DNA of 49,350 nt from a virus (taxonomy: Duplodnaviria > Heunggongvirae > Uroviricota > Caudoviricetes). The notes under the pieces were generated by a model. It saw only the letters and a list, made by a program, of their open reading frames with translations, ran no database searches and was not told where the DNA came from. Shown in pieces: positions 10,399 to 15,908 of the stretch (position 1 is its first letter; each line of letters starts with the position of its first letter). The stretch is taken from IMG/VR virus record IMGVR_UViG_2671180676_000008. One strand, given 5' to 3'. Position numbers and translations under genes: made by a program.

Positions 10399-10736
10399 CA
10401 GATCACCACTTCGTCAAACTGACACGAAAAATCGGTATAGGTGATATGTTCTGTCGCTGACCACGTTCGACACACCACTCTGATTTTTCTGTTAATACCC
10501 GGCGGGCGCCAAAAAAAAGATTTATAGCCTTCATGCCGGGCTAAAAATTTTTCAAATGAATCACGTTCATTCGCCTCAACTTTGAAATCACAGGTGAAAA
10601 CGCGCAGAGAATGATTAAGTCCATTTGGACTTCGTTGCTCATAACCATCGCCAAATCTTACAGTTTTTATCGATGGTTTATTTTCTGTTTTCATTCCATC
10701 CTCTGGTAACCAGTGAAATTCTTCCGTATTAGCCAC
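10398..10736 (-). CDS. M: Minor tail protein M
   Basis: 112-aa ORF with lambda M-like motifs (RFGDGY..QR), immediately downstream of the tape measure gene. Confidence 0.85.
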
Positions 10737-13700
10737 TTAACATTCCCCCATCACGTCGCATATTTAACAGATTGCCCTGCACCCGCTGATCAACCATCCC
10801 CATAAGTGCTTTTATTGCCTGAGGGCCAATCTCTCCATTCTGGCCGTCATTTTGAATAGTGATTTGGTATACAGGGGCATAGGTAATATCTCCGCCTCCA
10901 TTACCACTTTTACTATTAATAGCTCTGACACCAAGAGAACCATCGGAAGTTCGTGTTAATGGCATAATGGCTTCCGGTCCAGCCTCACCAAAAACACCAG
11001 CCCCTCTTGCAAAAGCAAAAAATTGCGGGGAATCATAAATACCGTTCGAATACGTGTTCAATGACGGAGACTCATAAACACCGCCCTTTGCATTCGGAAT
11101 AAATTTACTAATAGCACTCCCGATAGTTCCTAAAATCCCCCCAGAAGAACTGTTACTAATGCTGTCGAAAATCCCAGTAATTGAAGCCTTTAATGCTATT
11201 CGACTAAGATCCGAAATCACGGAAGTAGCGAAAGAACGAAAATTTGCCTTGCCTGTCGTGACAAAATCACCCAGCGCATCGGTCATTCCATCAAACATCT
11301 GAGTCGTGGTTGATTTTATCTGCTCACTGATATCCTTAGTGTCATCCAGCCAGTTATTGAATCCCTGGGAGGCACCACTAACCCAGTCTCCTGCCTGAAT
11401 ATCGAGCTGCTCGTTTTTCTGTCTGACAATTTCTTTTTCTCGTTCCAGAGCATCATTCAGAGCCTGCATTTTCTCCTGAAAAACATGATTTGACATCCCA
11501 CGGGATTTATCTGCATAGTCACGTTCAAGTTGCAGACGCTGATTGTTATATTCACGTTCAATCCGCAGTAATTCCTGCTGGCGTTGCTGATTTTTATCGC
11601 CAACCCCATAACCAGCAATCTGAATATCATACCCCTGTTGACGATTATCAATCGAAGCCTGCAATGAATCACGCCATGCAGCTATTTCGGCGGATTCCTT
11701 GATTAGCCTGTTATTTTTTTCAATCGCAACATTTTTCTCCATCAACGCGGTTATTTCTTCCCGGTGTAAGAGAAGCGATTTCTGATCCTGGGTTAATTTC
11801 GATGACGGTCGTGACTCCAGGTCGGCAATCTGCTGACGCCACTTAACCAGTTCCTGTTCAGAGGAACTTAATTTAACGGTTAATTCAGTTTGTGAACTTA
11901 GTAACGCATTCTGTTGATTCAGATGATCAATCATTCGTTGGGCAGCATCATCCGAATAACCTTTCGCCTTTGGTTGCTTTGGATCTTTATAACGCTCATT
12001 TATTTGAGCGATAAAATTATTATATTCTTCCTTTGAATACTGACTCTTTAGCTTTTCCAGTTTTGCAAGTTCACTAGCTCTCTGCTGCTCCCGGGTCTGA
12101 TATTGTTTTGAAAAGGCATCTGCTCTCTGTCTGAGTTCAATTCCTTCCTGTTGTCGCTTGTTGTAATCGTTTATTGATGAATTTAGGACGTCCTGAGCAA
12201 TTTTTTCTGCTTGAAGTACGCCCAATTGCTGCTTTAATCGTGCCAGCCTTTTATTTTGAGCTCCGCCATCTCCAATGCCACCTAACCCGAAAACTCCGGG
12301 TCGGGTATTTTTTTCTATTTCATCAATTTGACGGAGAACATCTGAGATTTTTTGATCAAGGGAGGCCTCACGGCCAATGTCCAGCATGGAATCCCATGCC
12401 CATTTTGCGGAGTCTGCGACAGCTTTCCATGCAGTCTCAAGATAACCAAGATTTTCTTTAATCTGGTTGGTGCGCTGGATCATTGAGGATGAGTATGCTT
12501 CTGTCGCAATGCGGGCGGCCTCCTGCTGGTTCCCTTCATCCTGTAGCGCCTTAATCTGGTTATAAGTCGCAATTGTCAGAAAATGGTACTGATCATTAAG
12601 TTTTGATATGGCACTGACAGGATCCTTTGCAATTTCATTGAAGTCATTAACCAGTTGTTCGGTTGATATTCCTGTTACTTCGCTCGTTTTTACTATCGCT
12701 GTCGTCACTTGCTCCAGCGAACTGCTCGCTACCTTTCCCGAACGCACAAGCTGGTTTAATACTGCCGCCGCAGCGCCAGTTGTCGAATCAGCCGCATTCC
12801 CGGCACGTTGAGCTATATCGGCCAATTGCCCGCTGGTTGTCCCCAACTGATTTCCGGTAAGAATAAGAGATTTATTAAATTCGTCCTGCTCCTGAGAGCC
12901 TTTATAGTAAGCCAGTCCTAAGACCCCAACGGCTGCTGCGGCCAGGGTAAAAGGATTAATTAATCCCAGCACATAAGAACCTACACCTTTGATCGCCGGG
13001 CCAATCCCACCGAACATATCTTTTAGCTGGCCGCCCTGCTGCATTAACACCATAAATGGCGACTGACCAGTGGACAACCCAACAACAATATCCGTCATTT
13101 GTGCAGGCAACATGCGCATAGCAAAAGCCGTTTGTTTTGCCGACATTCCGGTTTTGCTTAATTGTGATTGAGTAACCTCAAGCTCACTCCGCATAGCACG
13201 AAGTTTTCCAGAAAGCTCCTCATACATTTCAGGAGAAAGCATCCCCTTAGCTTTTGCTTCATTGAGCTGTTTCTGTTGTTCTACCAGACGATTAAAAGCA
13301 GTTCCGACAGGATCAAGTTGAGCAATCAGACGTTGCAAAGCAACAACCTGTTCATCATGCGCTTTTGCTGCTTCTCGCTCTGCCTGAGCCTCTCCGGTAA
13401 GCTCTCGCCGTGTTTCCTGTATTTTTCGGCTATAATTCTCAAACTGAGAACCATTTATTTTCCCGGATGCAAACGCAGCATTAAGTTCATCATGCTGTTG
13501 TTCAAGATTTCTTAGCGCCGCAGCCAGAGGGTCGATCTTGTCCAGCATTCTTTGAAAGGCCTGAGCCTGCGCTTCCTGCTGGGCGGCAGCAAGTTTTCCG
13601 GCCTTCTCGGCTTCTCTCTGCGCTTGCGCAACCCCGCTCAATTCCTCTGTGGTTTCATTAAGTTTACGGACAAGAAATTCATATTCTTCTTTATCAATAA

Positions 13701-13962
13701 GCCCTTTATCGAAAAATTTCTTTAATTCAGAATAGCGTCGACCGACAGTATCAATTGCGGCACCAACTGGATCAATAGCTGCTTTTAATTTTGCGAGCGC
13801 GTTCTTCTCATCTTCTGTTGCCTTAGTCACTTTCCCTGCGCTATTTGCAGCAGTTTCCCCAGCCTGCGTCATTTTGACTAATGAGGAGGTCAGATTGTCA
13901 GCATTATTTTTCGCTCCAGTGCTATCAATAATTATTGCGAGACGCGAGGTTTGCTCTGCCAT
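10729..13962 (-). CDS. Tail tape measure protein
   Basis: 1077-aa coiled-coil-rich ORF between the G/GT chaperone and M. Confidence 0.85.
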
Positions 13963-13980
13963 TTATTAAAACTCCTGACA

Positions 13981-14006
13981 ACAAAAAACCCACCGCGAAG
14001 TGGGTT
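13981..14006 (-). terminator. Terminator-like hairpin between GT and the tape measure gene
   Basis: Stem aacccac/gtgggtt (13987..14006) followed on the - strand by TTTTTTG, then an SD and the tape measure ATG. Confidence 0.3.
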
Positions 14007-14127
14007 TCAGGCGACATAATAGTAGATATAGCGATTACGAGGCCACGCAATGCTTTTCTCCAGGAGCATCATCGATTTAATTAAAGACACCATCACATCT
14101 CTGTAACAGAGTGTACGTAATTAACAA

Positions 14128-14897
14128 CTACACACACTGCTCCTGAAAATACTGGTCATCCAGTGCAAAGATCACTGCTTCAAATTCATCGCGCTCAATC
14201 AATACCGGATGAGTGGCTAAATATTCATTTATCTCTGTCAGAGATAAAGGCAAAGGCACCCCAGCCATTCCAGCATAACGTCGGGCACGGGATATTACCG
14301 AATAGGCGTACAACAACTCCTTAAGCACCGGGTCTATTTCTGGTTCCGGTATCGGTGGCAACCTGAGTTTTTCTCGCTTCCATCTTGCCTTTTCCCCCCT
14401 TTCTCCCCCGAACTCCGATAACCACCGCTGGGCAGCTATGGCTTTTTTATCGTATCCTGCTTCTGCTGCTCTTTACCCTGGGCGATGCTGGCTGCTTCTG
14501 CAAGGATCTGCCAGTACAACTCTGGATTCTGCTTAAGCAGCGCGATCCCTCGTTCTGCCGTATATTCCAGTGCAACCTCAACACCATTAACCAGTTCACC
14601 AACCCCTTTCCAGTCTTTCAGCAGATAACGAGCGGCATTATCAATGAGTAAATCATCAACAGAATCCACCTCGGAAACCTTTGAAATATCAAACTCCTTC
14701 GTTCCGACGTGCAAACTGGCATCCATTTTCTCAATGTGGCGACGGATTAATGCATTACGGGAGCGATACTGATCGTTATCGCTGCTTGCCACCAACAGTT
14801 TTAACCCGTCTACAGGTTTTAAGTCCTTCATTGGCGTAAACCAGCGTTCTCCACCAATGATAATTTTCTGATTAAGAATAAACATCCATAACCTCAT
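14128..14897 (-). CDS. Tail assembly chaperone GT fusion made by programmed -1 frameshift
   Basis: G frame stops at 14436; a -1 shift at A_AAA_AAG (14449..14443) continues with no stop into the frame of ORF 14128..14361. I translated the junction by hand. Confidence 0.6.
14436..14897 (-). CDS. Tail assembly chaperone G
   Basis: 153-aa ORF between the major tail gene and the tape measure gene; slippery heptamer two codons before its stop. Confidence 0.7.
   Translation of the reverse strand: MRLWMFILNQKIIIGGERWFTPMKDLKPVDGLKLLVASSDNDQYRSRNALIRRHIEKMDASLHVGTKEFDISKVSEVDSVDDLLIDNAARYLLKDWKGVGELVNGVEVALEYTAERGIALLKQNPELYWQILAEAASIAQGKEQQKQDTIKKP
14443..14449 (-). promoter_or_regulatory. Programmed -1 ribosomal frameshift slippery site (A AAA AAG)
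   Basis: Heptamer lies in the zero frame of G, just upstream of its stop codon. Confidence 0.6.
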
Positions 14898-14945
14898 TCA
14901 ATGCGTCCCCCTGTAGGGCAGTACCACAGGAGGAATAACGGAAAA

Positions 14946-15908
14946 TCAACTAATCGCCTCAGCACTGGCTTTTGCGATCACGGCAGCCGGGGAATTTTTT
15001 TTTCTGGTTATCGTAGGTGCTTCATCTGCTGCGGTAATGCTCAATTGAACCTGGATAATGTCGCTATTACCCCCATCAGGCCATTCACCTGACACCTGAA
15101 CCTTCGGGAAACTGAAAGTGTATGCCCCCTCTCCATTCGAAAGCGTGAAGCTGAACGGAACTGTTTCTCCAGTCAGTGTTTTACTCCAGATTTCCCACGC
15201 GGCTTTAGACCATGAAAGCGTCACCGTACCGGACGGTGTAAAAGTAGTCGGAATATTTGCTCCTGCATAAGGCGAGCCAGTCCCGATACAACGCTGTGTC
15301 TGGAGTTTGTTATCGAACTGAATATCAAAACTGTCGATACAAAAACCGTTACCTCCGGCAACACCATTCAGGCTTACTGCTGAAACCTCCTTAAACGAAT
15401 AACGTAGCTTTCCTGCACTACCCACAGGTTCGCCTTTGATAAAATTCGTATCATCGGCCTTTGATTCCCAGTCCAGTCCGGCAAAGGTTACGGTCGCTGT
15501 AATATCGCCGTCGTTAGGGATCTGCATTTTCCATGAGCCAACCTGCGCTCCTCTGACGACAGAGGCAATTCCGACATCGGACGCATAGGTCGCCAGAGAA
15601 AATGTTATTCGCTCATTCCCCATTGTCAGAGAATCGCCTGACCATTCCGCGCCGAAACAGGATGCAAGAAAATCATCATGTTGACCCCAGCGAAATTTGG
15701 TACCAACATCACCGCCGACATCCACAGTGCCAGGCGTCGCCCCCTGAGCCATCCGGGAGCCACCAATCTCATTATTTTCGCCTTTATTCTGGGTGGGTTT
15801 TACTCCCCAGCTTGTGCGTTTTAATAAACTCCAGTCACCACTTGCTGGCGTAGTGCCTGCAACCGTCTCCCGGATAAATGCCGAGATAACCTTTGCACCT
15901 GAACTCAC
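14946..15908 (-). CDS. Major tail protein
   Basis: 320-aa ORF between the neck genes and G, in the major-tail position. Confidence 0.7.
   Translation of the reverse strand: MSSGAKVISAFIRETVAGTTPASGDWSLLKRTSWGVKPTQNKGENNEIGGSRMAQGATPGTVDVGGDVGTKFRWGQHDDFLASCFGAEWSGDSLTMGNERITFSLATYASDVGIASVVRGAQVGSWKMQIPNDGDITATVTFAGLDWESKADDTNFIKGEPVGSAGKLRYSFKEVSAVSLNGVAGGNGFCIDSFDIQFDNKLQTQRCIGTGSPYAGANIPTTFTPSGTVTLSWSKAAWEIWSKTLTGETVPFSFTLSNGEGAYTFSFPKVQVSGEWPDGGNSDIIQVQLSITAADEAPTITRKKNSPAAVIAKASAEAIS

Follow-up and report, generated by a model that had tools for sequence, protein, structure and literature searches.

A predicted G/GT-type programmed -1 frameshift in the YdaY tail assembly chaperone gene of a Rac-like phage

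Are the two overlapping minus-strand frames that lie between the tail tube and tape measure genes of a Rac-like phage joined into one protein by slippage on a run of six A's, or is their relation of some other kind? In lambda, gpG and gpGT are related by a programmed -1 frameshift [Levin, Hendrix and Casjens 1993; Xu, Hendrix and Duda 2004, 2013, 2014; summarised in PMC5009743], and the G/GT frameshift has been confirmed experimentally in lambda, P2, L5, TM4, phiC31, HK022 and HK97 [listed in PMC5313236]. The locus considered here belongs to a stretch of 49,350 nt (IMG/VR record IMGVR_UViG_2671180676_000008), analysed as a whole and referred to below as the window. A G/GT-type programmed -1 frameshift in the gene for the tail assembly chaperone from a Rac-like lambdoid siphophage or prophage, with a predicted fusion protein, is the reading that we prefer, and we put its probability at about 0.9.

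Two frames between the tube and tape measure genes

The upstream frame is a G-like tail assembly chaperone gene of the ydaY family (14436..14885 (-); 149 aa and a stop), and it is the full-length form of the E. coli protein known as YdaY. Its 3' end reads CAG GAT ACG ATA AAA AAG CCA TAG, the stop occupying 14438..14436. The longest ORF starts at 14897, and a sequence-only reading of this DNA had accordingly given the span as 14128-14897. The end at 14128 stands, but the start does not: ATG 14885 (MFILNQ...) is the first residue in all homologues and is also the start used in GenBank ON032529. The slippery heptamer A_AAA_AAG (14442..14448 (-)) has the zero-frame X_XXY_YYZ phasing (ATA AAA AAG), and CCA is the sole sense codon between it and the TAG, so that the heptamer does lie in the zero frame of the G-like ORF near its stop, as that reading had claimed.

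After a -1 slip the sequence is read as AAA AAA GCC ATA GCT and continues for 106 codons without a stop as far as TAG 14130..14128, giving the peptide KKAIAAQRWLSEFGGERGEK... and bearing out the further claim that the -1 frame is open from the slip site to 14128. This frame is in fact already open 34 nt ahead of the G stop. The T segment so defined (14128..14448 (-); 106 codons and TAG) has no conserved start of its own. Translation from ATG 14885 through the slip would produce a GT fusion of 252 aa (14128..14885 (-)) with the junction QDTIKK/AIAAQRW, the predicted sequence across it being ...QDTIKK/AIAAQRWLSEFGG...

Taken by itself, the heptamer is no proof: the window contains 29 copies of AAAAAAG where 14.9 would be expected. 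Across the whole window, 125 X_XXY_YYZ sites lie in frame within open frames; behind 11 of these the -1 frame stays open for at least 60 codons, and the majority of the ones inspected were shadow frames within real genes. As the pattern of a bare heptamer and a long -1 ORF is unspecific, the significance of the site rests on gene context and comparative conservation, both of which are strong.

The G/T pair is flanked directly upstream by the gene for the tail tube (major tail) protein [14946..15908 (-); Pfam PF18906 Phage_tube_2, E = 2.3e-31; 'phage tail tube protein' in RefSeq] and directly downstream by that for the tape measure protein of 1077 aa [10729..13962 (-); Pfam TMP_2, E = 1.1e-81, with Tape_meas_lam_C and TMP_4], and a tail terminator gene lies farther upstream. 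In RefSeq, an identical E. coli locus is annotated with a lambda-like order of terminase, portal, capsid, terminator, tube, ydaY, hypothetical protein, tape measure and M/L/K/I/J-like genes. The region is 100% identical to that of Salmonella phage SPF_0923 (complete genome) and about 98% identical to those of nine E. coli vB_EcoS phages. Since phages this similar (98-100%) are deposited as phage records, the comparison suggests that the tail module works. Of 5426 complete E. coli genomes, 1073 have the gene, and in these the upstream ORF goes by the Rac prophage gene name ydaY; all that is left in K-12 is a 5'-truncated ydaY beside a tape measure pseudogene that is itself truncated.

Nine consecutive A's (14995..15003 (-)) occur in the 3' part of the tube gene itself, and both alternative frames stop within about 15 codons. 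A second recoding site here was rejected for lack of conservation: there are seven A's (A7) in one relative (L076), more distant ones lack the run, and for this reason it is probably incidental.

G matches PHROG 313 'tail assembly chaperone' with E = 4.9e-46 (158 bits), and the hypothetical GT fusion matches the same profile with E = 8.2e-51 (174 bits) over positions 20-246 of 258, an alignment that crosses the junction. A second chaperone family, phrog_8233, also spans the junction, with 34 bits for the fusion and 17 bits for G alone. T alone matches phrog_1189, to which no function is assigned, with E = 1.4e-36. The match of T to Pfam PF23812 Phage_TAC_18 (20.6 bits, E = 4.9e-4) lies below the gathering threshold of 27, and three of nine members of that family match at E <= 0.01, which is only a hint of a distant relationship. 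Searches of the Pfam-A and NCBIfam libraries found no family match for G; its precomputed Pfam assignment is PF27119. The best fold match was the HK97 chaperone, and the protein may have the HK97 gp10 / YqbN-like tail assembly chaperone fold; PDB sequence searches with the fusion and with a T profile returned chance-level matches only.

Conservation of the slip site and of the -1 frame

The comparative material consisted of 94 related loci from species-representative genomes and IMG/VR, supplemented by the copy in the window and by loci taken from annotated records. From 95 loci came 55 unique G-T sequences with 55-100% protein identity, which represent about ten enterobacterial genera, including Escherichia, Shigella, Citrobacter, Raoultella, Siccibacter, Scandinavium, Serratia and Pectobacterium. 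The 55 do not include L014 (from Pantoea) and L067, which lacked the anchor motif.

The homologous slip position, 38 nt past the IAxGK codons, is occupied by AAAAAAG in 52 of the 55 sequences, by GGGAAAG in two and by GGGGAAG in one, so that a canonical heptamer is found at the same place in 54 of 55. The codon before the heptamer co-varies with it, being ATA or GTA with AAAAAAG and GTG with GGGAAAG. This third-base co-variation, together with the change from VKK to VGK, indicates that slipperiness has been kept rather than the amino acids. ATA is a rare isoleucine codon in E. coli. The Pantoea locus outside the 55 has an in-frame GGGAAAG 75 nt ahead of its stop.

Beyond the heptamer, the two frames behave in opposite ways. 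The zero frame runs on for 3, 21, 75 or 105 nt, and these tails encode unrelated sequence. The -1 frame peptide is kept from the first codon past the heptamer, beginning KKA[IL]EAQKWLSEFGGE... in the relatives, with a longer consensus of KKA[IL]EAQKWLSEFGGExGEKAKWxREKLxLPPIPEPEID... Pairwise differences at T-frame codon positions 1, 2 and 3 are 0.19, 0.16 and 0.48 over codons 3-40, the 38 codons that precede every start annotated for T. The -1 frame is thus under protein-coding constraint directly past the slip site.

Relatives with about 30-39% identity share the arrangement. At the equivalent VGK position there is G_GGA_AAG in Acinetobacter phages TRS1 and TCUAN1; the site is G_GAA_AAG in Pseudomonas phage Aurca01 and C_GCA_AAG, with TAA next, in Erwinia phage Gungnir39. 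Two distant relatives retain no more than the A_AAG core. Gene order, the PHROG 313 match, the conservation of the slip site, the coding constraint on the -1 frame and the joined CDS annotated in TRS1 (see below) all support the interpretation, first put forward from the window alone, that this is the conserved G/GT frameshift.

A few loci depart from the common form. The single GGGGAAG belongs to Pectobacterium odoriferum (L012), whose site is a non-canonical G_GGG_AAG with an A-site Lys codon unable to re-pair in the -1 frame; its T is intact and conserved, and there could be P-site-only slippage on G_GGG, or the site could be a weakened one. Three near-identical IMG/VR loci (L036, L038 and L052) have an intact heptamer and a T frame that ends early, at 41-63 codons, probably through decay of the prophage copies or errors of assembly. 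In five loci (L069, L076, L086, L095 and L007) there is another in-frame heptamer, G_GGA_AAA, 30 nt upstream of the main one, with the -1 frame open from there. The window's equivalent (14478..14472 (-)) is the non-slippery G_GGT_AAA, and the -1 frame is closed by a TAA at that point.

Other accounts of the two frames, and the expected efficiency

One rival account is that T is an independent small gene with its own internal start, the candidates being the GTG at codon 41 used by RefSeq and the TTG codons at 14313 and 14361; the heptamer would then be incidental. RefSeq and GenBank both place a separate 'hypothetical protein' of 61-66 aa there, and an AAGGAG sits 3 nt upstream of TTG 14313. 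However, the annotated starts disagree, RefSeq using GTG at codon 41 and ON032529 using TTG 14313, and the AAGGAG is made of K-E codons that are replaced by G-E-I in relatives and stands at a poor spacing of 3 nt. The first ATG in T comes no earlier than codon 61, and neither a start nor a Shine-Dalgarno sequence is conserved there. The 40 codons ahead of the candidate starts, moreover, are conserved as protein across genera with the coding-type pattern of differences given above, and the heptamer is either kept or exchanged for another slippery heptamer, which argues against an independent start. We consider this account very improbable. The same low standing is given to transcriptional slippage, in which RNA polymerase would add one A to the A6 run and the protein product would be identical. 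Such slippage is a known route to fusions of this kind in bacteria [review PMC5009743], there are six consecutive A's at the site, and one inserted A gives the same IKKAIAA product. Against it, relatives with GGGAAAG, GGAAAAG or GCAAAG have only three or four A's, and their two-frame layout is unchanged. Efficient transcriptional slippage in E. coli is known for A runs of about nine or more, and the run of six is shorter.

The least probable of the accounts, in our judgement, is that the two frames reflect a decay mutation or a homopolymer sequencing error in what was once a single G-T gene, leaving a cryptic-prophage pseudogene. Rac is a classic cryptic prophage, its K-12 copy is truncated, and single-frame G-T proteins do occur in databases (e.g. 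P0001 and P0002). The same two-frame layout is nevertheless found in all 55 unique sequences, in many genera and in deposited phage records, and the position of the zero-frame stop shifts among relatives while the slip site stays fixed. P0001 (E. coli, 240 aa, NB16F79_39920) is accounted for by a deletion in a sequence of the window type. A 10-bp direct repeat, GCAGAAGCAG, occurs twice near the G end, 35 nt apart (14501..14492 and 14466..14457 (-)), and P0001 is the window sequence minus the 35 nt between the repeats, which leaves G and T permanently in one frame.

For programmed -1 frameshifting, the preferred reading, the course of events would be as follows. For most ribosomes translation would end at TAG 14438 and yield the G-like protein of 149 aa, and a small fraction would slip by -1 on A_AAA_AAG, peptidyl-tRNA-Lys and aminoacyl-tRNA-Lys re-pairing in tandem from AAA-AAG to AAA-AAA. 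The slipped ribosomes would read on in the -1 frame to give the 252-aa G-T fusion ending at 14128. By analogy with lambda gpG and gpGT, both proteins would use their G part to cover the tape measure protein. Tail tube protein would be brought in by the T part, allowing the tube to polymerise around the tape measure, and the virion would contain neither G nor GT. We infer that the slippage is ribosomal, and the binding partners of G and T are taken from the analogy.

No stimulatory element was detected on either side of the site. Downstream, the 109 nt from the heptamer gave a folding z-score of 0.23, and the consensus fold of ten relatives reached -3.2 kcal/mol with six pairs and contained no conserved hairpin or pseudoknot; a stimulatory structure of either kind was rejected on these two values. 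Upstream, no Shine-Dalgarno-like element is conserved, the AGGA found 6 nt before the heptamer being missing in three relatives (L011, L012 and L013). An Rfam scan of 13800-15100 returned nothing relevant, the lone match being a sub-threshold sroH on the terminator hairpin described below. With neither a downstream structure nor a conserved Shine-Dalgarno-like element upstream, low efficiency is expected, as in lambda, where the G:GT ratio is about 30:1 [review PMC5009743].

Published reporter assays indicate what such a site might achieve. In E. coli, A_AAA_AAG gave 0.29% frameshifting with no stimulator, 4.3% with that of IS911 and 39% with that of IS3, and the corresponding values for G_GGA_AAG were 0.28, 3.8 and 43% [Sharma et al. 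2014, PMC4066793 Table S3]. These near-equal efficiencies imply that the two heptamers, which are swapped for one another in the YdaY family, are functionally equivalent. In the same study, E. coli genes showed strong avoidance of in-frame A_AAA_AAG (z = -10.1) [PMC4066793]. A bare heptamer with no detectable stimulatory structure might work at an efficiency as low as about 0.3%, and the range that we would expect in the window is from tenths of a percent to a few percent.

Related systems and the annotation of YdaY

The likeness to lambda is one of arrangement. Major tail and tape measure genes flank the pair of frames, a short G ORF is followed by a -1 T extension without its own start, the X_XXY_YYZ heptamer near the end of G finishes in AAG (several relatives carry lambda's exact G_GGA_AAG), and in both phages a downstream RNA stimulator is not evident. 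The two differ in that there is no detectable sequence similarity to lambda G or T, the family here being PHROG 313 with phrog_1189; in the heptamer, which is A_AAA_AAG; in the length of G, which is longer at 149 aa; in the 165-nt spacer with a terminator-like hairpin that separates T from the tape measure gene; and in that the fusion is here a prediction from sequence.

A further parallel is provided by Acinetobacter phage vB_AbaS_TRS1, where TRS1_18/TRS1_19 (NC_031098) are distant homologues with the same layout, a T that is 39% identical and an equivalent VGK slip position; other Acinetobacter and Pseudomonas relatives show about 31-33% identity over both G and T. TRS1 differs from the window in using G_GGA_AAG and in having a 78-nt zero-frame tail past the site. 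Its record annotates the frameshift as a joined CDS, unlike the E. coli and Salmonella records examined, and the text of the TRS1 genome announcement does not mention the frameshift.

The same heptamer is known from unrelated genes. ECs1801 of the O157 Sakai prophage Sp9 is cluster A_AAA_AAG_25, whose -1 frameshift is listed as safely inferred [Sharma et al. 2014, PMC4066793], and like the window gene it is a prophage tail chaperone gene that has A_AAA_AAG at its very end and then TAG. It differs in encoding an unrelated protein of 124 aa and in that its heptamer abuts the stop directly. The possibility that this cluster is the window gene was rejected, since BLASTP gave no alignment. In the Sakai record (ECs_1801; L097 20361..20376) the gene ends AGA AAA AAG TAG and a separately annotated ECs_1802 lies downstream. 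The dnaX and IS3/IS911 sites also share the heptamer and the logic of tRNA-Lys re-pairing, but they rely on a Shine-Dalgarno-like element upstream and/or a hairpin or pseudoknot downstream, with efficiencies of 15-50%, whereas the window lacks a conserved stimulator of this sort.

The locus is therefore best described as an unannotated case of the well-known G/GT mechanism, genuine but ordinary, and our understanding of frameshifting is unchanged by it. Its main value lies in annotation, as the gene is found in about a fifth of complete E. coli genomes. The RefSeq/PGAP 'protein YdaY' has 119 aa even in intact prophages (14436..14795 (-) in the window; 9126..9485 in L096), and this model appears to derive from the 5'-truncated Rac remnant of K-12. 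T is currently a short hypothetical protein or is not annotated. No annotation of a frameshift in the YdaY family was found in the literature or in E. coli and Salmonella records, the distant member TRS1 being the one annotated. A tail assembly chaperone of 149 aa together with a predicted frameshift product of 252 aa would correct those records, and the locus also offers a well-supported case for training and testing frameshift predictors.

The alleles found at the one homologous slip position are A_AAA_AAG, G_GGA_AAG, G_GGG_AAG, G_GAA_AAG and C_GCA_AAG with a stop. It is a tentative suggestion, and one that we think is probably not correct in full, that the YdaY/T family forms a natural allelic series through which lineages could tune the G:GT ratio, with K-12 ydaY as a 5'-truncated remnant that has a working frameshift site and an unannotated T extension. 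The idea of tuning comes from the variety of slip alleles, some accompanied by the second, upstream G_GGA_AAA, and from the existence of a natural permanently fused mutant.

The slot between T and the tape measure gene is variable. It holds several small genes in distant relatives, and the corresponding slot in TRS1 has an annotated terminator, no tape measure gene being annotated within the examined stretch of that record. In the window, the 165-nt gap from the T stop to the tape measure start contains, within 14093..13985 (-), a 28-codon ORF (MVSLIKSMMLLEKSIAWPRNRYIYYYVA) and, at 14008..13985 (-), a terminator-like hairpin with a T-run behind it (GAAACCCAC-TTCG-CGGTGGGTTTT).
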